A stretch of 61,554 nucleotides of DNA, counting the filler, from Gonapodya sp. JEL0774 (taxonomy: Eukaryota), in the NCBI GenBank assembly GCA_027604505.1. It is 6 parts of 6 records of this genome, joined end to end, with 100 filler letters (N's around TTAATTAATTAA, not from the genome) between each part and the next. Parts side by side here need not be neighbours in the genome. Positions count along the whole stretch, not along the records: positions 51,436 to 61,554 come from JADIIX010000390.1; 5 more parts are not named here. One strand, given 5' to 3'. Position numbers and translations under genes: made by a program. The notes beneath the pieces are model-generated. The model saw only the letters and a list, made by a program, of their open reading frames with translations, had not been told where the DNA came from and ran no database searches. Below are positions 7,880 through 61,554 of this stretch, one piece after another (the stretch's first letter is position 1; each line of letters opens with the position of its first letter).

Positions 7880-10104
7880 ATGACCTCAATGACTCTGCCC
7901 TCCTTCTCCATCTCCTCTCTCTCCCGCATCTCTTCCTCCCTCCTGCCTTCCGCCTTCTCCCAACCACTCGCTTTCTCCCTCGGTAATGCCCCCCTTCTTT
8001 CCTCCCTCTCTCCTTCCCATCTCACCCTCTCTCTTCCTCCCTCCCCTCCTATCCCCCCTCTCCTTCCCATCCCTCCCTCCTCCTCCCTCTCCTTCCCATC
8101 CAGCCCCTAACACCGCTCCCAGACTCGCCAGGTCCTATCTCACTCGGAAAGGTACGTCCCTGTCTCTGTCTCTGTCTTTGTGTCCACCGAGGCCGCGCGG
8201 GGTGGTGGTGGTGGTGTCGGCCGAGAAACCTCGCTCCCTGCCGCAAGTGCCCTGGTGGACGTGGACATCGGGCGGCGCAGCGCGAGCGTCAGCGAGCGCC
8301 TCGTCCAAGCGTCAGCGACGGGCACAGTCCGCCGGAGGCGAATGATTTCAGCAGTCCATATGGGCCTTCACGCCGTTCACCCACGTGAACCTACCCCCTT
8401 TCTTCCCCACCCCCCACCTCCGCGCAAACCCACGGGGGGGTGGGCCGCTGTGACTCACGACGGGGCTCGCCGCGTGTCCGTTCTGGTTTCTCCAAACCAC
8501 CTTTCTCATCATCTCCTCATCACCCACCTCCGCGCAAACCAAACCCACCCACAGGCCCCCCCAAAATCGTCACCCCCACCGCCGCCGTCTCCACCATCCC
8601 CTCCCACTCCCGCATCTACGTCCACGGCGTCGCCGCCCACCCCACCGTCCTCACCACCGCACTTTCCCTCCGCACCGACCTCAGGCACGTCGAGCTCTGC
8701 CACTTGCACCTCGAGACTCCGAACCCCTGTGCCAAGGAGGACTTGAGGGACAGCTTCTTCGTCAACAATTTGTTCATCGGAGCCAATATGAGGAGTGCCG
8801 TGGACAAGGGGTATAGTAGTTATGTGCCCATGTTCTTGAGCGAGGTGGGTTCCTCGCCCAAGCGTCAGCGACGGGCACAGTCCGCCGGAGGCGAATGATT
8901 TCAGCGGTCCATATGGGCGGAAGAAGAGGCCCATATGGACCAATCTCGTCCAAGCGTCAGCGACGGGCACAGTCCGCCGGAGGCGATTGACCCTATGAGC
9001 GGTCCATGTGGACTATCGGACCTTCCGGTCATGCGTCAGCGAGGTGGTCCATCGGTAAAGGCAAAGGGGAGGCGGGGAAGATCGCGTGTGTGTCCCACGA
9101 GGACGGGGACTTCACTTTATACCATCGTGTCGTGGCCACCACTCCACACCACTTGGCATTCGACTCACCCTCTTCCCCACTCCCCCGACCCTCCACCCAC
9201 CCACCCCCCCAAAACAACAAAACAAGATCCCCACGGCCATGCGCCAAGGATACCTCCGCCCCGACGTGGCGTTCGTGACCGTGTCGCCGCCCGATAAGCA
9301 CGGGTACGTGAGTCTGGGGACCGAGGTGGGTGCAAGAAGAGGGGTAAAGGGAAATGGGAAGAGGGGATGGGGGCAATCGAGGAGTGACCGTCTCACCTGT
9401 TCCCCATCGCACCCGATCCCAACCGCCCACCCCCCCACCCCCCCACCCCCCACCCGCCCCACCCGCCCCACCCGCCCCGCCCAGGTCACCTGCGCCCTCG
9501 CCGCGTGCGAAACCGCGCCGACCATCATCGCCGTCATCAACCGCCACATGCCTCGCACGCACGGGCAAACCTTCATCCACTACACCGCGTTGGACTACGT
9601 CGTAGAGCACGACGAACCCTTACCGCAAAAGCACGCTGGCAAGACCAGGGACGTGGACCAAAAAATAGGAAAGATCATCGCTGGGTTGGTGCCGGACGGG
9701 GCCACACTGCAGATGGGAATAGGGGGCATACCCGACGCGGTGTTGGGGAGTTTGACGGGCCATAAGGATTTGGGGATTCATACCGGTGGGTAAGAGGGGG
9801 GAGTGGGGGGGTGGGGACGCAGGGACTCATGATGGCGCTCGGTCGGTCCCGTACTTGGGTTTGGTTTCTCATGCGCACCTTTCTCATCTCCTTCCTCACC
9901 CCTCCCGCCCCCACCCCCAGAAATGTTCCAAGAAGGCCTTCTCCCCCTTGTTGAACAAGGCGTTGTGACCAACCTCAAGAAACGTTTCTTACCGGGCCGC
10001 ATCGTGACCACCTTTTTGATGGGGTCGCAAAAGATTTACGATTTCGTAGACGACAACCCAAACGTGAACTTTATGGACGCGGCCATCGCGAATCATCCGG
10101 CTGT
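7880..10104 (+). CDS. acetyl-CoA hydrolase/CoA-transferase family I (4-hydroxybutyrate CoA-transferase-like), 3' truncated by contig end
   Basis: Spliced exons give SRIYVHGVAAHP, FIGANMRSAVDKGYSSYVPMFLSE|IP, PDVAFVTVSPPDKHGYVSLG, INRHMPRTHG, VPDGATLQMGIGGIPDAV, KDLGIHT|EMF, TTFLMGSQKIYDFVDDNP. The Ser/Leu-rich, acid-free N-terminus resembles a mitochondrial presequence. Confidence 0.93.
8278..8366 (-). repeat. copy of the short dispersed repeat in intron 2 of the CoA-transferase gene
   Basis: CAGCGCGAGCGTCAGCGAGCGCCTCGTCCAAGCGTCAGCGACGGGCACAGTCCGCCGGAGGCGAATGATTTCAGCAGTCCATATGGGCC is a near reverse complement of ~6590-6679. Confidence 0.85.
8853..9012 (-). repeat. two units of the short dispersed repeat with internal 13-bp hairpin, intron 3 of the CoA-transferase gene
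   Basis: CCAAGCGTCAGCGACGGGCACAGTCCGCCGGAGGCGA occurs twice. Perfect stem GGTCCATATGGGC (8906-8918) / GCCCATATGGACC (8929-8941). Confidence 0.85.
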
Positions 10105-10322
10105 TAGTGAGTGTGGGGAGGGTTGGGGGGGGGGGGGGGGGGGGGGCTGTGTGGGGGGGAAGGTTTTGGGGGTGGGTGGTTGTTTGGTTGTTTAGTTTTT
10201 TTTTTTTGTTGGGGGGGGAAGTNNNNNNNNNNNNNNNNNNNNNNNNNNNNNNNNNNNNNNNNNNNNTTAATTAATTAANNNNNNNNNNNNNNNNNNNNNN
10301 NNNNNNNNNNNNNNNNNNNNNN

Positions 10323-25408: not shown

Positions 25409-27802
25409 ATGGACAACATGTGCACTCTTTGGAATCTGTTCACGTTCACCAATTTCCTCTCGGCTCTCTGCATCCTCTTTGTCACTGGTTGCTTGCTCTT
25501 CTTCTACAACAACTTTGTTGTGTCTTCCCTGCGCTTTTTGCCAGTGGAATGGAGCTACTGGATGTTTCCTCCACTATGGCTCTTAGTTGCTTTGAGGGGG
25601 AAGGAATTTATCGCACTCAGTCAGATGCACAGAAGGTTCGGAAGTGTCGTGAGGTGAGTCGGCAAGGCAGATCTGAGCTGAGCTGTCTCCGGCCAAAGGA
25701 TCCGCTAGCGTTCAAAGCTGATTGGTTCCCTTGTCGGTCGTCCACAATTAGGTTTGGGGCAGGGGCCATTTCCATCGCAGACCCATAGACCGTGAACCAG
25801 GTATGTTGATCAACCCTGTTTTCTTTGCTCTGTTGGTCGGACCTCGTATGAGCTGAATTCACTTTCATTGCAGATTCTTAAAATCTGGAATTTACCCAAA
25901 CCGAAAAGTGTTTACGGCAACTTTAACTTCTCGAGATCGGTGCGTGATTTGCGTTTAGTTAGTTGGTGCGCTGCAGCACACGTCAATCTGCTCGCGACCA
26001 TCCCCAGTGGGCGCTCAAGCAGGTACATATGTCAACTACGTCTAACATGTGCATACGTTATGTTCCTCTTTTTATGTAGGACCCCGACAACATCCTGTTT
26101 ACCACTTCCGAAACCTACCACAAAAAAGCACGTCGGCTGGTCTCACCAGCGTTCTCCATCAAATACCTGAACTCCCTGGAACCGTTCACTCATCAGGTGT
26201 GGCAGACGTTTCAGAGCAAGGTAGAATTGATGCCAGCAAATGGAAGCGGATGGGCTTCTGTTAATCTGCAAGATTACTTTCAGGTGAGGGTAATTGGTGA
26301 CGATTGGCTTTGACATTGACAAGAAAGATCACGTGACTTCATACCGTGCGTCGACAATCTTTGGCTCCTCACCAGAACATGGCATTTGATATTATCGGCA
26401 TGACGGCATTTGGGGAGTCTTTTGGAATGGTAGAAACAGGTACGTTGCGTCCACTCATCTACTATTGCACCATCAGTTCACTCTGCATGATGTCCTTCCA
26501 CGTTCTTGTGCAATGAATCCAAGGCAACCATCCCGTGCTCACCGCCCGCCGTGCAAACTTTCAATTTTTGGTCATGAAGGTCGTATTCCCCATTCTCAGT
26601 TACATTGACTACCGCCTGCTCCCTATACGAGACTCTGTGGACATTGAACAAAGCGCACTTGCCAAGGTCTACACCAATCGTATAGCACTCAATAATGCTG
26701 GGCAGCGCCGCGTGGACATTCTCCAGATGCTGATTGACTATGAGGATCCGCGAACTGGAGAGCGTCTCACACAACAAGAGATTGAGGCTACGACAAGAAT
26801 AATCAACGCCGCCGGAAGTGAGACTACGGGCAACGCAATGACGTGGGTCATGTATTTCCTCCTCAAACATCCTACTGACCTCGCAAAGCTCCGCTGTGAA
26901 TTGGATGCAAGCTTCCCCGATGGACTTGAGGCACATTTGGAGCTGGCCAGGCTCAAGTCCCTGCCGTTCTTAGACGCAGTTATCAAAGAGTCAATGAGGA
27001 TGAAGCCCGGTGCACCGAGTATTTCAAGAGAGGCACCTGAGGACACATTGCTCACTTTTCACGATGCAGACGGGAATCAAAGTGAGGTGTTCGTACCGTC
27101 TGGGACTTTGGTAAGCTGTCGTTGTTTTGCTTAGTACAGCGTGTTTGAGTAATTGCTTGCTTTCCACTGGATGAACAATCCACTAAGATCGAAGCATCCT
27201 TTTTCGCAAGCCATCGGAGCCCACAGAGTGAGTTTGTCATTCATCATCTGTTGGATGATCAAAACACTAATCCCCTCCGAATCTTCTCCTAATTCCACCC
27301 TTTTAGTCTGGCTCCACCCTGATGACTTTCTCCCGGAGCGCTGGCTAGAAGGTGCCACCAGTACGGAGGATGAGGAAGTGTGTGGTGTGCGTGATCAAGC
27401 GCCGCAGAAAGAGATCAATGCTGACGCCGGGGTCGGCCCTACTTGGGGGAAACCAAAGTTGGTCAACCGCGATGCAGTTTGGCCATTCTCAGCTGGCTCC
27501 AGGTACGTACTACATCCTCAATGACTTTCTTGCAATTCGTGATCACGGGCTCATCCGCTTTGGGGGAAACCCGTCGTATTTTGTTCCTCCCCGAATCCCA
27601 CTACCACAATTATGTAAGGGACTGCATTGGCAAAAACTTTGCACTGAACGAAGTGCGGATTCTTGTAGGTTACCTGGTCCGCAGATTTGATTTGGTGCCA
27701 ATGTTTGATACTAGTAAGGAGATTGAGGGCGCGACGTTCATTACCTTGGCGGCCGATATGAAAGGGGGCTTGCCGGTTATGTTGAGACTGAGGAAAGAGT
27801 GA
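25409..27802 (+). CDS. cytochrome P450 (multi-exon) with an in-frame TAG at 25786-25788; possible pseudogene
   Basis: N-terminal TM anchor, RRLVSPAFS, AFDIIGMTAFGESFG, I-helix AGSETT, ExxR (ESMR), PERW, and heme motif PFSAGSR|DCIG split by an intron. Confidence 0.92.
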
Positions 27803-35601: not shown

Positions 35602-37260
35602 CGCTGATATCGGACTCTAGGCACCGAAGGGTCTCTTTCAACTCCGATGGACGGCATGCAAACGCTGGAAAACCGAAAGGATTGTGAGACACATTATCCC
35701 AGGGAGGGTCACTGTACCGACTTACCGAGTGTGCCGTGGACGGGGCGTGGTGGGAGGGTGAACGAAAAGGAACGTTTTGGACCTAGAACGACATACTTGA
35801 CGTAGTGTTTACATGTCCACGTTTGAAAGGACACTCACCGAGGTGCTCGTCGAGCGATGGGTGTCGGAACAGGCTTGTATACCACGATGGTGGAAAGGTC
35901 ATCGAAAGATCTGAGATAAAAATGATCAAAACTTCATCCTATCTTCGCTCATGCATCTCGATTTCAACGCACGTCTCTGATGTCATGCTGGCGCTATCTG
36001 AAAAACCACCATCGCTCAGAGTTTGCAAGTAGGAGTCCTCCGTGCTGTTATCAGCTTCCACACCGACGGTAAAAGTTGCCTCGCTTAGCATAGGGGACCC
36101 GCGTGGAACGTAATGCGAGAAAGCATCTTCCGACGGTCGACCGGCGCCTTCTGATATTGGAGGCGAAACTGATCTCTGGAGACAATGAAGAAAGCAGTCA
36201 GGCCATACTTGGATTCAAAGATAATCTATGCATAGAAAACCTACATGTGAGGCGCTCGGAACATCCAAATTCATCGATGCTGCCGTCGTTTGTGACGCCG
36301 TACACGGTAAAGTAAGTGAGTGTCGATGCGGATTCTCGTGTTTTCGCCAGAGGCCACAAAATCGCCATTTCTTACCAGTTGCGTCTGCTTCGCATTGGTA
36401 CATTAGTACTCCTGGAACGTGGGAGTCCTCCAAAGTCAATTTTCCAAACCCTTCGCCGCCCAGAAGACGAGTGTGATGGATGGTCCAACAGCACAGAAAA
36501 GCAGAGCAAACGATAGCTCTCACCATATTCCTTGACTTCCCCACCAAAGTTGTACCCCGGATCGTACGGCATCTCGCTAGTCTGTCGAAGTAGGAGGATT
36601 GCAATAAACTTTCCCAGCGATCTTTTGCGAACTCGATATAAAGAAACCCCGCACTTTCTTGGCAATGTATCCATCGTTATGCAGGCCTGCGTACTGGTTC
36701 ACGGGCACCATCTGCTGTGGGTGTGCCAAAGAAAGCGCGCGTGTCGACGAAAATGGAAGTCCGGCACCATTCCGAAACTCCGCGTCCCCACTCACGGTGC
36801 TGAAACGTATGACGCTGATCCTTAGTTGTTTAGAGCACCAAAACCTTTCGGGCGGTTTCCGCAATCGATTCTATGTGTGGGTAAAGGCTGGGCGCGTGGT
36901 GTGCATGAAAGCTCCGGCGGCCCCGCCGCACTCACAACCTGGGGGCAACCCCAATTGACTGCAGTCCTCAGAAACTGAGCGCAAACCACGAATCTAACTC
37001 TATGTTTGATCCACCGTTCTCACAAGACGTACACAAGTTAGTTTCGTAAGAGGGCAGTAGTGTTCCCTTCATTTGTATAAAAGCTCGACATCAGTTTCCT
37101 GAGTCATCTTGGGTCACCTGATCCTGATGGCAATTCATGGTTGGTCTGCCATCTGATCAACATTGCAAATTTCTGCCGGTTCCGGGATCAGTTGCCTCTG
37201 TGGCCAAGTTACACTGCCCGCGTAATCACTTGCCATTCTGAACCGGACGAGTTTGACTGC

Positions 37261-38933
37261 ATGGAAAATCTCCCCAGCGAAGTTCTCGCTGTTGTGCTAT
37301 CACTCTGCTCACTCGGCGATGTCCTTGCGGTGGCTGGAGTCTCTCGAACTCTACGTTCTAAAGTGGAATTGTCCCTCACCGAAATTTTCAAAGCGCTCAC
37401 CACATCCACATTCGATAGTCTCACAGCAAATCGTCTCGAGTGCGGAGTACCGTTGTCCAGCGTGGAGAATGAGAGCAGGGTTGACCAATGGCGAACTGTT
37501 TCACCCACCTTTGCGGATTTTCAAGACCGATTCCTCCTCCGTCAAGCACTTCGGGAGAGGACCGGATATCTCTCTCTGGATCATCTTGTTACCTTGACTC
37601 AGATGCTTGCGGAGGACAGTGGCCGAAATGCGGTGTTCCTCTTACGGGGAAAAGGCTCCGACAGTTCCCAAAGCGATGGTATTCAAGAAAAAGGAGCTAT
37701 TCAACAACCCACGTATTCGCGGGTAGCGGACCAAGTACTAAGAGTTATATGGATACACTGGTCGCACGACAGTTTGGCGGCGGTCGCCGGATCCGAGCAG
37801 CAAAAGGTAGACGAGCTGCAAGATCCTTCAGCATATGAAGCTACAAGACGGAGCCAGGATCTGCTTGGTGCGTCCTTAGGACTTCTTGTTCTGGCCTACA
37901 CCGTTCGTAGGTATCCTGTCGCTTCTGTCCCGTTAATTGCTCTGAGCAAGTTACAATGTGATGGTCTCTAGAGATACCAACGTCCAGAGTAATCTCAAAA
38001 CTATTCTTTGATGCCAGCGTGCTAGCGCGAGTGAAGCGCAGAGGGTCTTCCACTGCCCTAGAGAAGCTGCTTGCCGCATCTCTAGCTGCAGTTCATGTGT
38101 GTCAACGCCGCCGCCTCTACCACCCAGCACAGGCAAGGCCGCCTGCAATGCTCCATCCTACTCGCCGACAAATATCCTCTTCAAATGAGCTGCTCCCTAT
38201 ACCCAGACTTTCAAGGCTAGTGAATGCGAGACTAAATGCGAGACTTCCCCAACAAATCGCTTCTTTGACTGGTGCTTATCGAGATGGTGACATTGGCAGC
38301 ACCAGGACGCTTGCAAGAACGCATCCCAACTACTTTATACACTTGAAATCTGATGGTTGTTCCCATCATTCACGGGTGATTACAGTAAGCACCAATGTTT
38401 GTATTCTCATGAGCAGACTCAACGTTCCGTCCATATCCACTTTTATTTCGATGTGGATTTTCTAGCCGATATCAAGCTCTCTAGACGCCACTGTTACACC
38501 GGACTTAGGACGTGCCATCAACTTCTCAGAGTATATGCTTACTGGGTACATCCGCGAGAGTCTTTCAACTGTGCCTCACTTGCTCTTGGGGGCATGGCGA
38601 GGATTCTATCAGTACCATCTTGGTGACAGGAGGATGGATCCAGCGATGACTTTCCATATTTCCATTTGCAAGGGCCAACGTTCCTTTTCGGCATTGGCTA
38701 ATGAAATATCTGCCTCACGGTGGCTCTTGAAGGGCCGCGGTCAAGACGGCAATGGAGACTTTACTTTGAATGGCTACATGTACCTCGACGGAACACTGAC
38801 TATCGAAAAGCAGTGCGGTACTCAACATTGGCAGTATGATGGAATGTTGTTGCCGTATTGTGTCGCAGGCGTCTGGGGGAACGCAGATAGGGCGCCAGAA
38901 GGGACATTTTTATGGTGGAAGGAGTCTCTTTAA
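37261..38933 (+). CDS. F-box protein, multi-exon
   Basis: N-terminal MENLPSEVLAVVLSLCSLGDVLAVAGVSRTLR. C-terminal beta-type domain GAWRGFY...GRGQDGNGDFTLNG...WQYDG..LPYCVAGVWG...GTFLWWK. Confidence 0.8.
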
Positions 38934-41326: not shown

Positions 41327-43858
41327 GTCCTCACCGACGGCGAAATCTACGACACCGACCCGGTCTTCCACCTGGCCTCCACCGTCTCCCTCACCACTCC
41401 CACGCGGATCTTCACATTGGGCGTGGGCAACGCCGTGTCGCACCATCTGGTGAACGGGCTGGCCAGGGCAGGAAGGGGTACCGCAGAGTTCGTGGGGTAT
41501 GGCGAACGCATGGAGGCGAAGGTGGTCAGGATGGTCAAGGCGGGGGTCAGGGGGTTTGTGGAGGATTTGAAGGTGAGCAACGGGGGGGCGGGGAAGGGGA
41601 AGGGGGGGGCCGGGGGGCGAGCATCTCTGGTCATGGTGGTTCTGTGTTTTATTTATTGCAATTTTTGTTTAATTTTTCTTTTCCTTTCTTCTTCTTTTTC
41701 TTCTTCTTCTTTTTTTTTTGTGTGCGTGGTGTTGCGTAGGTGACGTGGCTCCCCCAAGCCGTGGTCGACAAAGTCCAGCACGACCAGTCCTCGACCCCCA
41801 CTCCACCTCCACCCTACTCCGCCGCCGCCGCCCCCTCCACCGAACCCCACCACCCTGCGCCTTCCTCCTCGTCCTCCTTCTTCGACGAAGACGTCACCCC
41901 CGACTCTGACGACCCGCTCCACACGCTCGCCCCTCCCGCCCCTCCACCCGCGCTCGTCCAACAGGCACCCTTTTTCGCACCGCCCATCTACGCAGGTGCC
42001 CGGTACGTGTGCTTCGCCATCATCGACCCCCGCCTTCCGGACCCCACGGCCATCGTCATCACGGGACACTCGGTGGACGGGCCAATGAGGGTCGAGGTGC
42101 CTGTGGGGGACAACGCGGTCGTGGTAGGGGAGACGGGAGAGGGAGGCACGGAGGAGGTGGCGGTACTGCATACTATGGCGGCTAGGACGCTGGTGCAGGA
42201 TATCGAGGAGGGGAAGAGTTGGATGCACCGAGGGCAAGGGGAAGGGGCAGGCGGGGATGTGGATGAGGCGGTGAGCAGGGCAGAGGTGGTGAGGTTGAGT
42301 AAGAAATGTGAGTGGAAGAGGGTTCAGGTGTGGGGGTGGGGTTGTGGGGTGTGGACCAACCTTTTACTCACCGCGAAAATTGTTTGCATGTTTTTTGTTT
42401 TCTGATATTGTGCAGATGGGATCGTGTCCAAGTACACTTCGTACGTCGCGGTTCAGATCGTCGACGGAAGGGAAAGGGCGACCGGGATGCCTCAGCGGAT
42501 CGTGGTGCCCAGCAGGGTGAGTCATGCGAGAATCTCGTTTTAGTGGACGGCCACTGCCAACCTCACATGTGCACTCACTGCACAAACCCCCTCCCATATC
42601 CACCTCCTGTGGTTTTTGTCCCCCACCCTAGCGCGAGGCACAACTGGTGGACCAAACTTCCGTTAGTGCCATCCAAGCCATCATGCACGCCAACATCCAC
42701 AGCGTCGTCTCCCGGGGCGACAAGCTCGATGCCATCGAAATGCGCACGGACCAGTTGCAGGCGCAGTCTCGGCAGTTTGCAAAGAGCACCAAGAAGTCGG
42801 CCGGGTTCGGGTTCTCCATGCCGTCCATGCCGTCGATGTCCATGCCGTCGGTGTCGTCGCTGTTTGGAGCAGCCAACAAACAAGGCGCTCCACCGCCCAC
42901 CGCCCCGCCGCCGCCGCCGCCGCCCCCCGCGAAACCCATGGCGATGCCCGGTCCGCCTTCGTCTGGGGCGACCCCTGCCAGCCCCGTCTGGGTCGGCGGG
43001 TCTTCTCCGGTACCAGGGGATTCCAGACCCCTCAGAGCCGCGTATCCAATCGACGCTTCCTATTGGTGGGCTCCGCTAGCTCCATTCCCCGCACCTGCAG
43101 CCAGTCCACTACCCCCACCTGCAGCCAGTGCTCCTCTGGCACCATCATGGTCCGAACCCGCTCCAGCACCACCGCGGCAAGGCGATTCCGCGTGGCTACC
43201 TCTGCAAGCTCCACCTCCCCCACTTGCTCCCAGAGCTCCCCCTCCAACGTTCGCCTACCCGCCTCCGGTGATTTCGTCGGGTTCCAACGCTGCACCCCCA
43301 CCCCCACCACCGCCTCCTCCAGGTGCTCCCTCGATGGCTCCTCCGCCACAGCCAGAGTATTATTCATCCAGACCGAGTTCGTTCCGTGTTCCACCGCCAT
43401 CCTACGGAGCTCCAGCGCAATCTTACGGATCGCAGACTTCGCAAGCTTTGGATGATGCTCTACCGATGTCACCTCCCCTAGAGCGAAATTACCGGGTAGC
43501 GTCCACATTGTCGGACGGTGCAATCCCCACCCGTCGTGCCCCCCCTCACTACACCCCCCAGCAAATCCTGGCCATCCTCGTTTCTTTGCAGAACTTTGAC
43601 GGATCCTTCCCGTCCGACAACCGCCTCTTTGGCATTTCTCTCGCTATCACGGCAACCCCGCCCGCCGGCCGCACCCCCGAGGAATGGGCTACGGCGGTGG
43701 CCATCGCGCTGATGCAGGTTCGGTTGGCCGCTCAAAAGGACGAGTGGGAGTTGATGGCAGACAAAGCGGTGGCGTGGCTGGATGGGAGGGTTGGAGAAAA
43801 GGAGAGGAAGAGGTTGGTGGCGAAGACGGCGAGGGTTGTGATGGGCAGTCCGTGGTGA
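41327..43858 (+). CDS. VIT/vWA (VWA5A-like) protein, 5' truncated, with internal R-SNARE (synaptobrevin-like) motif and Pro-rich region
   Basis: VLTDGEI...RIFTLGVGNAVSHHLVNGLARAGRGTAEFV (vWA end), LHTMAARTLVQDIE, LSKK|YGIVSKYTSYVAV, IMHANIHSVVSRGDKLDAIEMRTDQL, LVSLQNFDGSF, WATAVAIA, DEWELMADKAVAWL. Confidence 0.9.
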
Positions 43859-51179: not shown

Positions 51180-51435
51180 TTGGTTGTTCGTTGGTTGTGA
51201 TCCATCAACCCTGCCAGGGATGACCCAACGGAGGCGGCGCTGAATGTGGGCGGTCGCACTCATGGCACGCGGCTGACCGAAGCCCGTGTGCTCGGTGGCT
51301 CCAGACTCCCCCCGTGTCTACTGTCGGTCGATAATNNNNNNNNNNNNNNNNNNNNNNNNNNNNNNNNNNNNNNNNNNNNTTAATTAATTAANNNNNNNNN
51401 NNNNNNNNNNNNNNNNNNNNNNNNNNNNNNNNNNN

Positions 51436-52934
51436 GAAAGTGCCTTGAATGCGCTTTCACCAGCCTCACCAATCGAGTTGACTGGAGTCAAAGTAGAGGA
51501 GAGAGAAGAGAGAAGAGAGGAGACCGTGTGTGTGAGTCAGACTCAAAAACTCTTGAGCGAGATCGAGCGGGAGGTCACACTCTGATACTCACAACTGAGA
51601 TCGAGCGACATCAAGGTGGAGTTGGTCTTGAGGGCCTCAGCAAGCGCGGTGGCGCCAGCGTCACCGATCGAGTTCCCTGAGAGGAGTAGAGTCAAAGTAG
51701 AGGAGAGAGCATAGGAGAGAGAGCAGAGAGGAGACGGTGTGTGTGTGTGCTCGTGTGGGGGTGTGACAGACTCACCGACTCTTGAGCGAGAGCGAGCGGG
51801 AGTTCACACTCTGATACTCACTATTAAGGTCGAGCAACATCAAGGTGGAGTGGGTCTTGACGGCCTCAGCAAGCGCGCTGGCGCCAGCGTCACCGATCGA
51901 GTTGTCTGCAGTAGTAGAGTCCAGAGGAGAGAGAGGAGAGAGAGGAGACGGTGTGTGTGTGTTTGTGTTCGTGTGGGGGTGAGACAGACTCAGCGACTCT
52001 GGAGGGAGAGCGAGAGGGAGATCACACTCTGAGACTCACAATAAAGGATAAGCGACGTCAAGGTGGAGTTGGTCTTGAGGGCCTCAGCAAGCGCTCTGGC
52101 ACCCGCCTCACCGATTGAGTTCCCTGAGAGGTGTAGAGTCAAAGTAGAGGAGAGAGAGGAGAGAGAGGAGACGGTGTGTGTGTGTGTTTGTGTGGGCGTG
52201 AGACAGACTCAACGACTCTGGAGCGAGAGCGAGAGGGAGATCACACTCTGACACTCACCACTGAGATCGAGCGACGTCAAGGTGGAGTTGGTCTTGACGG
52301 CCTCAGCAAGTGCGCTGGCGCCAGCGTCACTGATCGAGTTCGCTGGAGTCATAGAGTCGAGAGAGAGGAGAGAGGAGATGGCGGTTTGTGAGTGTGTGTG
52401 TCACTCAGCGAGGCTGAGCGAGAGCAAAAGGGAAGTCAACCTCTGATACTCACCATAAAGGTAGAGCAACGTCAAGGTGGAGTTGGTCTTGAGGGCCTCA
52501 GCAAGCGCTCTGGCTCCAGCCTCACCGATCGAGTTCACTGGAGTCAAGAGAGAAGAGAGAGAGGAGAGAGGACAGAGGAGACGGTGCGTGTGTGTGTTCG
52601 TGTGGGGGTGAGACAGACTCAGCGACTCTTGAGTGAGAGCGAGCGAGAGGTCACACTCTGATACTCACCACTGAGATCGAGCGACGTCAAGGTGGAGTTG
52701 GTCTTGAGGGCCTCAGCAAGCGCTCTGGTGCCAGCCTTACCGATCGAGTTCCCTGTGGTTTGGGTGGGCCGGGGTGGTGGTAAAATCATAATTATAGAAG
52801 ACACATTAACATCGCATGTCGTAACTCTCCATACGCCCTGCTGGACTCACCCGTCAATGTTAGGGTCGTGACGGTACTATTGCTTTTGAGCGCGTGGGCG
52901 AGCGCCCTTGCTCCGCCAACTCCAATTGACTTAA
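51436..52934 (-). repeat. tandem exon+intron array encoding 28-aa LRRs (xNSIGxAGAxALAEALKTNSTLxxLxLx)
   Basis: Seven full 84-nt phase-1 exons plus one partial. Most introns are homologous to each other (GTGAGT.TCAGAG.GTGA...GAGTCGCTGAGTCTGTCTCAC...(CA)n...(CT)n...AG). Unit length is ~180-230 bp. Confidence 0.95.
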
Positions 52935-55199
52935 CTTTGGTGGAGGCACGACAGTTGGAGGAGGAGGACAAGGTGAGAAGGGACTAGAGCGTCTACATTA
53001 CCAGACTACTAGGGGAGAGTAGAAACACGCAAATTGAGATACAACGCACAATTCACGTCAAGTTCGGTTTCGTTGTTGGCTATGTCTTGCAGCACCTCGG
53101 TTAAAGCACCTGCCCCGGCAGCTCTGCTTGTGTCTCTGGGAGCTTCCAATAGCAGGTTCGCTATTGTGGAGGCCTCGCGTTAGTACCCAGTGAATTGTGT
53201 GGTGTCTGCCAACTCACCATATTTCCAAGTCTCCAGATCTTTCTCCGATAAAATTCTGGCGGGATCGTCTTCCGGCAGCGTCTTCTCCCGGATATGGTGT
53301 ACACTCTTCAGAAGGGCCATTGCAAGTTCTAACTGCCCTTGGGAAAAGTACGCTCTTGCGAGCGCGTGCTGGGCAGCCAGCAGATCTGGATGGTCTTTCG
53401 AGAGGACTCGTTTCCTAGCAGCAACGACGAGTTTGAGCATGTCCACTGCCTTGTCTACTTGTCCGGTATACTCGTAAGCGAGGGCAAGCTCTTGCTGCGC
53501 CTCTAGCATAGAAATGTCCTGTTGTGTAAGGGCCGGATTTAGAAGACGTTGGAGTGTTTCATCCAGTTGGGCAAGCCAACTCTTTGAGGGCTTCCTGTCC
53601 CCCCCTTCTTGTTTTTGACCTTTCACCACCACAGAAAGTTGTTGTCTTCCAAAGACGCATGCTTGAAGCCATAAAACTGCTTCTGCGAATCGTCCGTCGG
53701 AGTTCAAGCACCGCCCAACCAGAAAACACAGGTCGTGTCTCGGTTCCAGCTCCTTTCCTTCACCACTTCCCAGTACCTTCACGGCGTGCGGGAGGTACTC
53801 CCTCCATCGCTCTCGATTCTCCCAATCATTGGTTGGAAATATTGAGCTGATGTGTGTGATCGCCTCTTCCATCTTTTTCGACGCAAGGCGCTGTGTGCAC
53901 AGCCAGTCCCATGCCGCCAGGTGCACGAGACGGTGGAGATCATACACTTCATCCTCTCTGTTGGTTTCCTCTGAGCGACGTGACACGAATGCGTACCCGA
54001 TGAGGGTATTGATCGCTCCTTCCATTTTCACGGCAGTCCCGGCTGTGGGCAGGATGGTTCGAGGGATGGACTTCCATTCGATACACGACATGAAGCCCAG
54101 GATGTCCGCTGCAAGGGGATTTTCTTGAGTTATCCGCTTGAACGAGACCACCCACGTTTTGGCCACTGTACTTTGGGATTTCTCGTAGTGGGTTTGGTCA
54201 TGGAAGCCTTCGCTTAGGATTTCCGTCTTCTCTTCATCCAGCATTTCCCGATATCTTTTGATTGTAATTGCATTAATATTCAGGTACGCTGCTGCTTGGG
54301 CAATTGCCAGCGGAAGGTTGGTGAGTTCTTTGAGGAGTTTTGTGGTGTTCAACTGATCCTCAAGCAATTCTTTTCTTTTGAGTGATTTCTTGAAAAACTC
54401 TACTGCCTCCTCGTCGCTCATTGCTTCCATATCAATGGTTTCAGCTCTTGCGAGGAATGTTCCGACCTTCAGAGGGCGGGTTGTGAACAGAATGAATCCT
54501 TGTTCACTCTGTGGAAGGTAGTAATCAATACCTCGACCCTGTTCGGTGTTGAACATTATCTCTGCGTCGTCGGCATTGTCTACGATCAAGAGCCACCGTC
54601 CGGCTGCATCCTCGCTCAAATATCGCTTGACAGCCTCCTTTATGTCCTCCGTTGCCCCAGTCGTATGAGAGATGCCAACTTTAATAGCCACCTCCTTGCA
54701 CGCCTGCTCAAAGCTCTCCAAACTGAGCGCAGAAAACCAGAAGATCGAGTAGTCTTGATATGTCTCCTTCACTCTGTACGCAAACTCGAGTGCAACCTGT
54801 GTCTTTCCCACTCCACCGAGTCCCACAAGAGCTGCCCTCTGACAATCCTTATCGTCAAAGAGTTTTCTGTTCAAGGTCGCGAGGACGTGATTCCGTCCCA
54901 CAAACTGTTTGTTCCTCGAAAAGGGAATGTAGTAGTGGGGTGGGGAGGAGCCAGGATTCGCATCAACTCTGGATTGAAAAGCACTGATGACATTCATGAT
55001 ATTGCAGCGGTCACAGGTACGGAAAATAAGCACGCGGAGCCTTGAATGGTGGAGCTTACCTCGAGCCTTGGTTGTTAGAGTTGCCGATGTGAACGCGGCC
55101 ACCTTCAATGTGTTGGGAGTGTATTATTATGTTGGTGACGTTACTCGTCGGTGCATGCGAATTTGGAAAGGTTTGTTGTCCATCATGGGTGGTCAGCAT
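51436..55199 (-). CDS. NLR-like receptor: N-terminal amyloid-like motif - NB-ARC - TPR - RI-type LRR array; 3' truncated
   Basis: Frame-consistent splice model: 55199-55060, 54983-53218, 53160-53050, then 84-nt exons 52934-52851, 52752-52669, 52537-52454, 52342-52259, 52123-52040, 51905-51822, 51676-51593 and partial 51481-51436. Walker A GLGGVGKT, Walker B WLLIVDNAD, ILFTTR, LPLAI, LHRLVH, kinesin-light-chain-type TPRs (HPDLLAAQHALARAY). Confidence 0.85.
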
Positions 55200-55778
55200 G
55201 GGACCGATGGTTGGGACTGGGAGGGGGGTTGGGTGGTGCCAGAGGGGGACGACAAGGATTTGTTGGAATTGAAAAGGCGCACGGTCCACACACGAGCAGA
55301 ATGGCCGAACCAACAAGGATCAAAGGTTTCTCCCGTTTGCAGTCCTTGGAAAGGGTCACGCGACTGATCCTGCTGAGGCTGACCTAAGGTGGCACAGCAA
55401 CTATGACCACCCCACATCACTCGGTGCATCAACCTCGAACGACATCATATTGACAAAACGCACCATCTTATGCCGCACTTCTCGCCTCCGCTTTACTCTT
55501 ACGACCTCCCATCGTCTTTTCTATTCGACCTGAAACCGCGCGCCCCGCTACCGTTTCCCCCGCGCACAGACCAACAATGCTTTACCCTGTCAATCTCATC
55601 GCGTCCCGCGCCAGGTTTCTGCTCTCGCCCCTAGGGAAAGAGTTGTTTCCTCTCCCGTGTGTCGCGTCTTTTGATTTTCCCGGGGAATCGCGTCGTTCCT
55701 TCGTGTCCATGGGGAACCTGCCAATCGCACAACCACACGAGTAAGTTGTCCCACTTCCCCCGCACATCTGCATCAGTG

Positions 55779-57080
55779 ATGGACTTCGTATTTCTTGGTT
55801 TCAATCCTTCCTGTCGCGTACTCAGTTTTCAACTCGGTTGGCATCATCATCCGCTGCTCCCCTACCCGGTCTTTCCGTCGTCGTTGCCTACCTCCGGAAG
55901 TCCAAGGATGAATAAAAAGGCCAGAGTGTGTCAATTGGAGCTCGAAACCATTCGTTCGCGACCTGAAACAGCGGGGCTGCGGCTTGCACCAAACGTTCTT
56001 TCAAGAAATCAAGAGCGGGGGACGGCCATCTGGTCTCTGCAAGAAGGAACGCGATGGATTTGAACGAGCTCTCACCCTCGCGTGTAGGGCCACGACGCGT
56101 CACCGGCAATCAAAAGGGGCAAGATATGAGCAATGATTACTCTAGACGATAATGGAAACGCGGGATGCATGACTGGGATCGCATCTTACAGGCTGGATCG
56201 TCTTGCTCGCGACGCATGTGTCTCCTCGGGGTAACAGAGCGTCTTCGGGCTGCAGACAAGACGTTTAATCGCGGCCACTCAACCAGAGAGATCCATGCGA
56301 CGGCTTTTCCCACATGGCTACGAGAAGACTTTGCATATTTTCTTCAACGCACTTCAGTCAGAGATGAAGGTTACGATTGCAAAGAGAGCCAAGGACAGCC
56401 AGTCTCATCTTCGACTTGCTGGTTACTGTACAGGGCTGATTGCACCGCATGGGGAAATCTGGAGTGCTGTGGATCAGACTGGTACATCGTATCGTAGCTA
56501 TTCCACGAGCGACATTCGATCTCAGGTTCTGGCGAAGGAGGAAATCCGTCGAGTGCAGGACGAGCGAGAACATCAGCAACTGAGAGAATCAGAAATCTTT
56601 CACATCATGGTTCTCAAGAAGTTCAATAGACCTTCAAGCACCTCTGAAGTTCAAAGATACCTGCCTCGATCGGAATGTATGTGAATTATCGCGGCAACGA
56701 CCCAATGGCTTGACGTGCCACTTTCGTTCGTGTAATGAAGTTCCACCTCGCCAGAATGACCAGAGACGAGCTGGATGCTCTTTCCGAAGCCGCCGATTTG
56801 CGAGCCGCGGAGTTGGAGGTCGCAAAGAAGGAAGTCGGCGTTTTCTTGCGACCGGAGTGGAGTGGATGTAATTGGAAGAAGGAGCCGCAGGGAGGGGCGG
56901 CGAATGGTGGGTGGGCAGTTCGTGTTGTTGGCGTTGCCAGAGCTTCAACATCACATCAGACGGTCTTCTGCTACCCACCTCGCGGGAACCCACCTTGGTA
57001 ACACCTATCCTACGAAATAACACAGAGTCCATTGATGCGTGAAAGGCTCGGAGGATCATTTTTGTCCACCTGAGGTGAGC
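55779..57080 (+). pseudogene. possible degenerate gene (helical N-terminus plus kinase-like remnants), divergent from the NLR
   Basis: Fragmented frames: AAPLPGLSVVVA, NKKARVCQLELETI, KEEIRRVQDEREH, GVFLRPEWSG...GWAVRVV, EPTLVTPILRN. Many stops and frameshifts. Confidence 0.25.
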
Positions 57081-58667
57081 GAACTTTGTTTTGGGGGGAC
57101 CATCGTGTGCATGTATTGTTTCAATCTACACTCTTCGTCCGGTTTTCATAGTGAATTGTCTTCATCCTTAAAGTGACCTGCATACTTATTATATAATACA
57201 TTCATAATAGATTTGGTATTCTACTATTCGACACGCGCTCCCACGGTCTCTAACGCACCACAGGAACATGGGTGCGGACGGGGGATTCAGATTTCGCCAA
57301 TTTGTGATCCCCGCTTCTATGACTCACCTCTTCCTCTCTTGCGGCACTCTTCTCGACCTTTGCGTTTATGAATTTGCGTCACGCCCAGAAGATCTTTTTG
57401 CCTGTTGTCTTGCGACCGGGGTGGGGTATGGCGCGCGGTGTTGAGTGGGTTGTGAGGTTGAGAGGACGGAGGCCAGGTGCAGTGGGCCAAGGGGGACGCA
57501 GAAGGAGAGGAGACTGAGGGGACAGCAAACGGTGATCCAACCTTCGTCCAGAGATGAGAAAGGCGGGGTGGACTCCACACGACCAGCTCGCTCATCACAC
57601 GAGGCTGTGGCGCCGAAACGTGATCTACCGCAAAAGCATATGTTCGCCCTCTGGACTGTGCACCCCAGACCTTGTCTGGGTTGAAATTGGTTCCAATTCG
57701 GAGACGTCAACAACCATTGGGACTTGGGGGCCGGTGAGTGCGGGAGGTGAGACAGACATGACGCTTAGATTTCACAGACTCCACTCACCTAGACTTTCGA
57801 TCCCACCCCATCTTTGTGTGGAGAGAACGGATCCGTTCTGGCAACCTCCCATTGTCTGACAGTGGTGTGGTTCCTCGCATGGACCCATCGCCAGCTTCTG
57901 ACCCCGCTACCCTCTCACCCCACTCAGACGCCTTAGTTCCTCAAAATCCAACACGTCTATTAAAGACCATTGCCATGCGTCCTGGAATCACTGATTACCC
58001 CCCGGAAACCCCGGTAGGCTGCAACATTTTTCTCTGCAACAAGCCCAAGTATCCCACCACATGTATCGTGGCCTGGAGTCTGCCGAGAGGAAGATTGATG
58101 AGATTCAAAGCGCGGAATTGAAAATGGTTCGGTAGAGGTGGTGGGTATTTCACGTATATTGGAAGAATCGAGAACGGCTTTAAATAAGGAAGGATGAAGA
58201 GAGGGTGAACAGAGAGGGTGAAAGTCGGAAAGGCATGTCCTGAACTTCATTACACAACAGCACAACCCCCCGAACGGCAACAATTCACTTTTTGCCTTTC
58301 ATCCCCTGATTTATTCTCTGATTTCACTGAGACAGCAAAGAAGAAGGCCGTCACTTGTGACCATGATCCAGTGACTGTCACTTCACTTGGCCATACTAAT
58401 GGGTTAGGGCATATACGCACCAGAATGGGTAGGAATAGATATCCAGATAGATTCAGCACCTTTGCGTTCCAACGGCGATCCTCTGATTGAGCAACCAGCA
58501 TGCCTTACGCATCCACCATCCGAGGCCACCAGCGTACACTAACAAATATTAATGTAGCACCAGGGCATTGACCGACTATATGAAGCAGAGTCCTGCTAGC
58601 CTCCTCAAGTGGATGCTTTTCAGCTGCTGGTCAGTGTTGGGTGTCAGCACAAGGCACATCACATGAC

Positions 58668-58868
58668 GTGCTCTCAAACGACATTGCCCACTCTTCAAGC
58701 CACCGAAAGCTATCGAAAATCATCCCTCATGTGAATGAGTGCTCAAGCACCGGAAAGCTCAGCTCCACCCCATCCCAAAGGACGGAGTGATATGCTCTCA
58801 AATGACAACACCTCCATCCCAAAAGATGGTGTGATATGCGCTCAAATGACAATGCCCACTCTTCAAGC
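58668..58868. repeat. local imperfect direct repeats (~46-bp tandem plus 30-bp flanking repeat)
   Basis: CCATCCCAAA(G/A)GA(C/T)GG(A/T)GTGATATGC(T/G)CTCAAATGACA occurs twice in tandem. CTCAAA(C/T)GACA(T/A)TGCCCACTCTTCAAGC occurs at ~58674 and ~58841. Confidence 0.7.
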
Positions 58869-59185
58869 AAGGCAAAGCATGCTGTTCGGACTCATCAGTC
58901 CCGCTGGCTGAGCGCCTCTACCTTCCCACGCCAACGCAGCCGTAACAACGGAAGTGGCCTGACCATAGACCGGACTAGGGTCTCTCTTGATGGCGAGACT
59001 TGCCCGCGACGAGTCAGCACAGCTCAGTGAGAATCCAGATGGTGATGTACCGGCGGCACGGACGAGGTGTGGTGTTGCCCGTTGGGGAGGGTCGTGGGAG
59101 CGAGGGAGGGAGGGCGAGAAGAGAGAATGGGCGGGGGCCGGCTTGCGCGGACGTGATGTGGGATGCGCTTCGGTGGGGGAACATA

Positions 59186-61554
59186 TCACTGCACGGTGAA
59201 TGACACGACTACGTGCCCAAACGGCTGTGGAGAACTCACCAGCAACCCCATCCTCCACCTCCTCCACCTTGACGTCATCCCGTCCAGAAGACCAAGCCCT
59301 CCACCCTCCTTGTTCGATTCAGACTCCGCCACGATCCCCAAGAGCGAAGAATCCAGCGAAGGGAATGGAAGCGCGGTGAGCGCACCTGATACGAGGAGCG
59401 GTGTTGGTCGGTGGAGCGGATGTTCGACATCGTCCGTGTCAGGATAAGCGAGAGGAGAATCTAAAAACATATCGGAACAAAGAAAGCAACGCGGGAAAAT
59501 GAGTACTTCCAAAATCCGGTGTGTGTCAGCACAACTAGAACAGTGGCACGTACCATCGTCCTACGAACCCCTCCTTGTCCCGGCCCAAACCATGACGGAG
59601 TACCCACATACTCATTCCCCGTTCCGTTGGCTTCCCTCCCATCCAGCCCGTCCTCGTCCATCATGTTCACACTCCCGTCACTCCTCGCTCCCCTCTTCTT
59701 GCTCTGCTTCCTCCCGTCAACTTTGCAAACGTCCACTGAAGGAAGTTCCGTTTCGGGGAGTAGAATGCCCGGGATTGGAGGTGGAGGCGGCTGTGGGGGT
59801 GGCACAGTTGTCGCCGATTGTGATACTGCTCCAGCTCCCGACACCCCGGACACTTCCAACTCAGTCCGTCCAGTGTCCACACCGGCATCCCCTTCCACAC
59901 TCCTCTCCCCATCGCTCAACCTCGGACTCGGACGCATCTTAGCCTCCACAGTCTCCCCCCCTCCCTCCATCTCACCACTGGCCTTCTGCTCCACGGCCCC
60001 GCTCCCGTTCCACCCAGCCACGAACCCCATCACCATTGTCAACGACATGAAATTGAAAGTGGACACTCCGATCCCAGCGTCCCGTACTCGCACGGACCGT
60101 GATGTTCCTCTTGGTGTGGTTCTGTAGGGACGTGATCCGTCTCGCCATCGTCGCCGTGTCTTGGGGACCATCGCCGTTGCTCCGGGGTTGGTCGGCGCAC
60201 TGGATGTGGACGTGCGCGATGGAGACGGCTACGGTTGTTTCAAATGCCCCGAAGCGCGGTACGGGAACGAGGAGGGCAGTCTGGCACCCCAGGCAATGAC
60301 CACTTGTGGGAGTAGGCGCTGACGCCACGGAGGCGTGCGACTCCTTGGACCGGCAGGGTTCGAGCGTGTTGAGGAGGGACTCGAGGATGGTGGTGCGAGC
60401 GGCGGTTGGGGTTTGTGTCGGACTGGGCGGCGTGGGTGTCTCCAGGCGTCAGTGTCAGTGTGAGATCGTCCACCCTGGCCAACTCGTCTTCATTGTCGTC
60501 ATTGTCCGTCGTGGTGGGCTCCGACTTGGTGTCACTGCTCGCCACGTTGGCCATCTGCACCAACGCCACCTGTACCAAACTACTGAGCCGGTGCTGTGGT
60601 GCCGCTCCCCCACCTCCAACACCCGACACCGTCGACGCAGACACATTCGACACAGGCCTTCTGATTACGTTCCCACCGCCGCCACCGTCGCAATGGTGAC
60701 CATGTGGGCCGCTACGGGGAACCTCGCGCCTGTGATCGTGTCTGTGTACGACGGACCCGACGGCGACGAGCCTGGCACACGCGATCGTGTCTGTGTACGA
60801 CACACCAGACTACGACGAGCTTGTCGACATGATCGAGAACAATGGACCACGATGAGCTTGTGCACACGGCCGAGGACGCTGACGCAGTGGTTGCGAGCGG
60901 GGTGAGCGAGTGGGACGAGAGGAGGGAGGCGGAGGGGAAGGGGGTCCAGGTGTTGGAAGCGGGTCGAGGTGGTGGCTTGGGTCAGCGACGCCGGGTCTGC
61001 ATCATTTGAGGATAAGGAATCAGTTGGGTAAGTCGTACACATCCACCACCAACCTGACACAGCCCACCAACTTACGCGTGGTCGTCCAACTCCATGCCTC
61101 ATCCCCCCGATTTCGTGCCCATCCCTCCCCCTCCCCCTCTCGGCAGGAGATAAGGGGGGTCGGGGTGGTTGGGGTGGTTGGGGTGGTGGGTATGGACGGA
61201 ACGTTGAAGGAGGGGGAGGAGGTGGTTAGGGAGGAGACGATGGTGGCGACAATGGATGTGTACGCCCACAAGGCGGAGGGGTTGGGGGAGGTGGTCGGTG
61301 TACGGGGCCGCACGAGGTACGGAAGCGCCGAAGCGCCGCCGACATGTTGGACTCTAGGAACCTAGACAATCCCGATCCATAGGACGACTTGAGCTGGTCC
61401 CTGTCCCTATCCACCACAACCGCGGCGCCTGCCGGGGTGGACCACGACCTTCCGTCCTTTGACAACCTCAGTTCCACCATCGCCATACTCTTAAGGTTCG
61501 GGCAACGAGGGGGGAGGGGGGGGGGGGGGACCCGAGTGGTTGGGGTGGGGACAG
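59186..61554 (-). CDS. multi-exon hypothetical protein, low complexity, 5' truncated
   Basis: Overlapping long ORFs (59186-59512, 59461-60171, 59972-60328, 60240-60803, 61020-61313) with GT-AG boundaries. No family recognised. Confidence 0.4.

Follow-up and report, generated by a model that had tools for sequence, protein, structure and literature searches.

The window analysed here, a 61,554-nt stretch of DNA from the monoblepharidomycete Gonapodya sp. JEL0774, joins six contigs of about 10 kb through 100-nt spacers (N44-TTAATTAATTAA-N44) at positions 10223, 20542, 30832, 41096 and 51336. Because the window consists of six joined contigs, its other genes were rejected as neighbours of the NOD-like receptor (NLR) described below. 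The last spacer and the Pfam matches on the other contigs are:

9059-9793, plus strand: acetyl-CoA hydrolase/transferase
26517-27134, plus strand: cytochrome P450
34945-35616, minus strand: C2H2 zinc finger
37081-37971, plus strand: F-box
42632-43858, plus strand: synaptobrevin
51336..51435, no strand: artificial spacer, after which the NLR contig occupies 51436-61554 (10119 bp)

The NLR gene lies on the minus strand, and its NB-ARC open reading frame finds its best database match in P0003 (KAJ3335087.1, Gonapodya sp. JEL0774), with 100% identity over 92% of the ORF. Four further Gonapodya paralogues, P0004, P0005, P0006 and P0048 (KAJ3335265.1, KAJ3336596.1, KAJ3336464.1, KAJ3335028.1), belong to the same family. 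The features of the gene, all on the minus strand, are:

55060..55199: predicted exon 1, from ATG 55199, 46 codons, with a phase-2 donor; absent from public model P0003
55077..55136: predicted HRAM r0-type amyloid signalling motif (residues 22-41), called from identity to NWD2 r0, a sub-cut-off Pfam HET-S match and a third-position signature in the paralogues
54984..55059: intron 1, 76 nt, GTAAGC...CATCAG, with the in-frame ATG 54997 inside
53218..54983: exon 2, encoding a linker, NB-ARC, a helical region and 2-3 TPR
about 54880-54221: NB-ARC in exon 2 (Pfam E 8e-13), with Walker A, Walker B and MHD-like motif intact
about 53506-53261: 2-3 TPR in exon 2 (Pfam TPR_10/TPR_12)
53161..53217: intron 2, 57 nt, GTGAGT...TACTAAC...TAG; the splice is also in public model P0003
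53050..53160: exon 3, 111 nt, a linker/cap leading into the LRR array; aligns to P0003, P0004 and P0005
51593..52934: exons 4-10, seven 84-nt phase-1 exons, each encoding one 28-residue RI-like LRR
52934-52851, 52752-52669, 52537-52454, 52342-52259: LRR exons 4-7
52123-52040, 51905-51822, 51676-51593: LRR exons 8-10
51436..51481: exon 11, a further LRR unit, truncated by the contig end

The resulting 11-exon model spans 883 codons with zero stops and has GT-AG borders at all 10 introns; the tail of the model can be aligned to P0004 and P0005, which Pfam resolves into NB-ARC, TPR and LRR_6 or AAA_16, TPR and LRR_6, with LRR_6 strong in both. Within the LRR array (51436-52934, minus strand) the tandem unit measures about 218 nt including its intron, and exons 5-10 share 80-92% DNA identity. 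Since the LRR exons are symmetrical (84 nt, phase 1), repeats could be skipped or duplicated without a frameshift. By this model the gene likely runs on into at least eight one-repeat LRR exons, giving a predicted HRAM-NB-ARC-TPR-LRR protein, a point that the first-pass annotation of this DNA had missed. Retention of intron 2 would bring in a stop at 53180 and leave a protein without LRRs, and the P0006 model ends likewise; the gene may thus yield isoforms with and without LRRs.

At the other end of the gene, minus-strand positions 55199-55060 form a stretch of 140 nt (46 codons plus AG) whose translation is identical to that reported in the first-pass annotation; the 76-nt phase-2 intron proposed there is likewise recovered, running from GTAAGC at 55059 to the AG ending at 54984, and its predicted splice joins exon 1 in frame to the NB-ARC-TPR exon. 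The encoded N-terminus is N/Q/H/S/T-rich and low in charge, and on exon 1 Pfam shows just a weak HET-S match, in line with the earlier claim that no folded effector domain stands ahead of the NB-ARC. The motif had also been described as hidden in a separate exon, and public model P0003 does without that exon, beginning, as the P0004 model does, at ATG 54997 within intron 1. Farther upstream, an AG resembling an acceptor at 55217 and a donor-like sequence at 55502 could extend the protein by a few residues; neither Pfam on the ORFs of this region nor tblastn found a domain in it.

That the join is in frame carries little weight alone, because four of the seven AGs within 160 nt of the exon 1 donor would keep the frame (intron lengths 19, 76, 91 and 145 nt; the in-frame AGs besides 54984 end at 55041, 54969 and 54915). 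At the first acceptor P0004 carries I instead of S, and this copy would have to use the second AG. The branch pattern [CT]T[AG]A[CT] is absent from the last 45 nt of intron 1 and present in 5 of the 10 introns of the model. Intron 1 is also without a stop in the NB-ARC frame, and between the Gonapodya paralogues it carries 5-6 inferred changes per 24 codon equivalents against 5-10 per 14 in the motif exon, making the intron the more conserved of the two; such a conserved, stop-free intron containing ATG 54997 could possibly reflect a motif-less isoform or recent gene conversion. The start of the P0003 and P0004 models at this ATG, the open and conserved intron with no strong branch site, and the number of in-frame AGs would all suit a gene in which exon 1 is untranslated, or is no exon, with translation beginning at ATG 54997 and the likeness of the motif to known ones arising by chance.

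Alignment of residues 22-41 (55136-55077, a small offset from the 55133-55071 reported earlier) to the r0 motif of Podospora anserina NWD2 shows 10 of 20 residues identical with one gap, including a shared R-V-H-hydrophobic-G-N-S end. With NWD2 r0 as the query, exon 1 scores 50 and the runner-up among 2177 stop-free six-frame segments of the window scores 35; among 20000 shuffles of the peptide, just one attains the score of exon 1. An Antav1-type second query, chosen by eye, gives a weaker result (score 39, equalled by 185 of 20000 shuffles). Cores of the [RKQ][VIL]x[IVL]G[NDS] type occur twice in the six frames of the whole window, one of them in exon 1, and the sole match of exon 1 against 24736 Pfam models is HET-S (PF17108; E 0.034, 14.5 bits, below the cut-off of 24.3).

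HET-s-related motifs (HRAMs) are defined, in the accessible text of PMC4518210, by G at position 19, R or K at position 15 and hydrophobic residues at positions 5, 8, 10, 16 and 18, with the r0 motif on the NLR side charge-poor and S/H-rich. The Gonapodya motif has the G at 19 and the R at 15 in register with NWD2 r0 and, in the one-gap register, fills four of the five core hydrophobic positions (I, I, V, I), position 8 being Q; ungapped, only three of the five are filled. Position 3 in the one-gap register is I, not N/Q/H, and an N stands at position 2. The motif is one residue short of the 21-residue HET-s repeat and occurs as a single copy, its 20 residues including 1 E, 1 R and 3 H, which is the low-charge make-up of an r0; its N-terminal placement depends on the predicted splice. 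As far as the published HRAM table is accessible (PMC4518210), it includes gapped r0 motifs and motifs with Q8, position 3 varies among its r0 entries, and RVHIGN is found in it 19 times, RVHIGN and RVQIGN being ordinary HRAM1 cores. Because position 3 is I, the residue there does not assign the motif to any of HRAM1-5. Judged by its sequence, the motif is of the HET-s-related (HRAM) r0 type.

In its placement the motif resembles that of the NWD2/HET-S system of P. anserina (HRAM1 r0), where a single motif likewise lies close to the start of the NLR and no effector domain accompanies it. Compared with NWD2 r0, it is one residue shorter, has Q8 and I3, begins at residue 22 and occupies an exon of its own; compared with the NWD2/HET-S system as a whole, the Gonapodya receptor is NB-ARC-TPR(-LRR) rather than NACHT-WD40, no adjacent HeLo gene is seen, and the host lies outside Dikarya. 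Antav1 r0, in the accessible part of the HRAM table (PMC4518210), has a similar first half (N-three hydrophobics-x-x-Q-x-I-E-G, with Q8); its C-terminal half differs, and it is the weaker match. The motifs of Agaricomycete NLR05/08/22/29/44, which we compared by their description in the accessible text of PMC9815663, share the three N-terminal hydrophobics and G[DN]; there, many NLRs occur per genome and effectors are unlinked, but the lineage is another and these receptors have no LRR.

The first-pass annotation had proposed a HET-s/NWD2-type amyloid motif at the NLR N-terminus with features of the RHIM class as well. Identity to NWD2 r0, the shuffles and the HET-S match bear out the former, and the absence of the RHIM tetrad leaves the latter unsupported. 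RHIMs (RIPK1/RIPK3) and the fungal PP motif are, like the Gonapodya candidate, short beta-arch amyloid signalling motifs with a hydrophobic-x-hydrophobic-G core, and the candidate might be read as a RHIM, or as intermediate between HRAM and RHIM, pairing in the manner of RIPK1/RIPK3 or of the PP motif; G-x-x-N does follow its core, the back-translated core of P0005 permits VQIG, and a RHIM/HET-s resemblance is already in print, as the accessible part of PMC4262963 indicates. The RHIM core tetrad, however, is given as (V/I)-Q-(V/I/L/C)-G in the accessible text of PMC9444067 and reads VHIG here, and the GxQxG segment that defines the PP motif in that of PMC5485727 is not in exon 1. Pfam yields no RHIM match, a Q stands where an apolar residue is expected two places past the RHIM asparagine, and the core is an ordinary one among HRAM1 motifs. 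We give this possibility almost no credence and, because the tetrad is absent, take the motif to be an HRAM r0, not a RHIM.

The NB-ARC-TPR family does bear short amyloid-type tags, since three of the 120 listed homologues, all from Penicillium, have GxQxG in their N-termini. Four Penicillium NLRs of the family, P0022, P0024, P0036 and P0041, have short, G/N/S-rich N-termini, with the GxQxG pattern in three of them and a weak Ses_B match in P0024.

In all five public models of the Gonapodya family the motif exon is either left out or read in the wrong frame, and a motif survey working from proteomes would therefore overlook the motif. The models of P0003, P0004 and P0006 begin too far into the gene to bear on exon 1; those of P0005 and P0048 read through its end and the intron in the NB-ARC frame, which lets back-translation recover two bases in three. 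At the same offset and in the exon-1 frame, both copies permit [AGS][RK][VIL][HQ][VIL]G, which random window DNA does in 294 of 200000 trials, the pattern having been set post hoc after viewing these two copies, which share ancestry. The motif is compatible in all three Gonapodya copies that reach it, with S or P replacing N20 in back-translated P0005. In a test built on back-translated proteins and limited to 14 codons, the distinct changes inferred favour third positions of the exon-1 frame by 11:2 (p 0.011), and by 8:1 within the six core codons (p 0.02). The 11:2 ratio differs from the 70:90 seen in genuine NB-ARC coding DNA (Fisher p 0.007) and shows no significant difference from the 5:3 of intron 1 (Fisher p 0.33). 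Such an excess in the motif frame is as would be expected under purifying selection.

These results weigh against a chance match in an untranslated leader, which we regard as improbable: shuffles and the six-frame ranking put the probability of chance low, the motif lies exactly at the usual r0 location and is then followed by an AG/GTAAGC donor, and the third-position signature of P0005 and P0048 fits the exon-1 frame, not the frame in which they are annotated. We favour, with moderate confidence, a gene in which exon 1 carries a single HRAM r0 motif, is predicted to be spliced to the NB-ARC-TPR part and likely to the LRRs, and would serve as the likely amyloid seed for a separate cell-death effector.

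A six-frame motif scan of the whole window found no effector repeats, and neither Pfam on 41 ORFs of 55056-61552 nor tblastn of 135 proteins against the 6.3 kb upstream of the gene found an effector; the neighbourhood thus covered is the 10119-bp contig, the downstream neighbour lying beyond the contig end. In the upstream region, positions 56235-57001 (plus strand) hold two short ORFs resembling fragments of one helical protein, with weak, unrelated Pfam matches. Searches with the exon 1 peptide, which have little power for a motif of 20 residues, returned no word-sharing protein of 84-2000 aa and, among 1.84 billion representative proteins, no effector; the single match among these representatives was a repetitive spurious ORF and was rejected. 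A PDB search with the peptide gave nothing significant (E 1.5), and an Atlas search gave matches of at most 0.80, which are uninformative. Among related metagenome loci, no such motif was present in the 40 scanned upstream or the 80 scanned whole; in several of the 80, in-frame upstream sequence resembles other effector domains by eye. A tblastx match of the exon region to one locus, L012 (E 0.009), involved antisense frames and was rejected as chance.

With no effector on the contig or in the database searches, the motif might be a true HRAM r0 by descent that came with the NLR and is now partnerless, a relic or an aid to self-assembly. The S or P at the expected N20 of P0005 and the greater divergence of the motif exon than of intron 1 between paralogues would fit such an orphan. 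Changes nevertheless cluster on motif-frame third positions, every Gonapodya copy that reaches the motif is compatible with it, and the effector search read only 10 kb of the genome. Effectors adjoin their NLR in 98 of 155 cases in the accessible text of PMC4518210, and effectors away from their NLR are documented, being the rule in basidiomycetes according to the accessible part of PMC9815663. We consider an orphan motif unlikely, though less so than a chance match, and retain a seed for a separate effector as the preferred reading.

By analogy with NWD2/HET-S, as described in the accessible texts of PMC4518210 and PMC5485727, binding of a ligand at the TPR/LRR end would free the NB-ARC to oligomerise, and the r0 motifs clustered in this way would adopt a beta-solenoid fold. 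The solenoid could then act as a template for the r1/r2 repeats of an effector, either a pore-former of the HeLo type or an enzyme of the PNP_UDP/SesB type, whose gene would probably lie elsewhere in the genome, as has been proposed where many NLRs share one effector. To this scheme the sequence itself contributes the motif, the intact NB-ARC motifs and the open 11-exon frame.

The named non-Gonapodya matches among the best 120 listed are all Pezizomycotina, at 38-47% identity (unnamed ones reach 50%), and no Gonapodya prolifera protein is among those 120. A tree was built from 65 NB-ARC regions, with 5 from Gonapodya, 30 from named Pezizomycotina, 20 from unnamed sources and 10 from outgroup loci judged bacterial by eye, and samples 55 of the 120 homologues; it places the five Gonapodya copies in one clade on a long branch (support 98/100), at an unresolved fork with other fungal sequences. 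Nesting within Pezizomycotina was not recovered, and a topology grouping all the other fungal rows is not rejected (AU p 0.48). Horizontal transfer from Pezizomycotina is plausible.

The same match list would also be expected if the contig derived from a contaminating ascomycete, in which case the gene would be an ordinary Dikarya HRAM-NLR and the claim about the lineage would fall; the uniformly Pezizomycotina affiliation of the named matches and the absence of G. prolifera from them point that way. The five copies, however, form a single long-branch clade, and the LRR module has its closest relatives in RI-like proteins of Mortierellaceae (12 of 14 non-Gonapodya matches), not in ascomycete ones. 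LRR units of this kind occur in three of the best 120 listed homologues, all three from Gonapodya, and in none of the 115 non-Gonapodya ones among them. These LRR affinities make contamination very unlikely. In the reverse direction, none of eight Mortierellaceae-type LRR relatives scanned has an NB-ARC match, and an Atlas search with P0005 returned NB-ARC-TPR clusters only, with no LRR among the families shown.

Less securely than the mechanism above, the motif-NB-ARC-TPR part may have come from a Pezizomycotina-type family and undergone fusion, within Gonapodya, with an LRR module of early-diverging-fungal type. The product would recall plant NB-ARC-LRR receptors, in which LRRs follow the NB-ARC, and brown-algal receptors, whose repeats sit one each on separate symmetrical exons according to the accessible text of PMC13449251. 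Unlike both, the Gonapodya protein has an NB-ARC of the fungal/bacterial TPR-linked type and keeps 2-3 TPRs before its LRRs; the LRRs are RI-like and nearest those of Mortierellaceae, and an amyloid motif would form the signalling end. We put forward tentatively, as a possibility we hold to be somewhat doubtful, that this is an NBS-LRR built in Gonapodya, in which an ascomycete HRAM-NB-ARC-TPR was combined with an LRR array open to reshuffling by splicing or recombination, and which would signal by amyloid templating to an unlinked cell-death effector.

The motif is of a known kind, and the novelty lies in the lineage that hosts it and in the predicted HRAM-NB-ARC-TPR-LRR arrangement. In fungi, motifs for amyloid signalling have been documented from Ascomycota and Agaricomycetes, and the earlier description of this lineage as poorly documented agrees with the literature searched, where none was found reported. 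In searches that reached few subscription journals, we found no report of an amyloid NLR motif in Gonapodya, of NOD-like receptors in Monoblepharidomycetes, or of convergent NBS-LRR formation by exon shuffling in chytrids or fungi. Among the rows listed in the accessible part of supplement file 2 of PMC9815663, the largest survey, all 34 from Chytridiomycota, including the one G. prolifera NLR, are marked motif-less, and none of the 34 lists an LRR. According to the accessible texts of PMC4986451 and PMC12881547, fungi yielded no NLRs with LRRs, and that of PMC12258605, a 122-proteome screen that allowed LRRs and included G. prolifera, contains no LRR result that we saw. NLRs of Mortierellomycota and Gigasporaceae are treated in the accessible part of PMC11291939; those of PMC10197012 and PMC12261475 make no mention of chytrids.

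A real HRAM in a monoblepharidomycete would imply either a much older origin of this mode of signalling or the transfer of a working module across phyla. An HRAM-NB-ARC-TPR-LRR protein would, for its part, directly counter the view that fungi have no LRR-bearing NOD receptors and offer a test case for the repeated origin of NBS-LRR proteins. If the proposed reading is true, amyloid signalling would extend beyond Dikarya, and the NBS-LRR design would have arisen a further time, independently, within the fungi.
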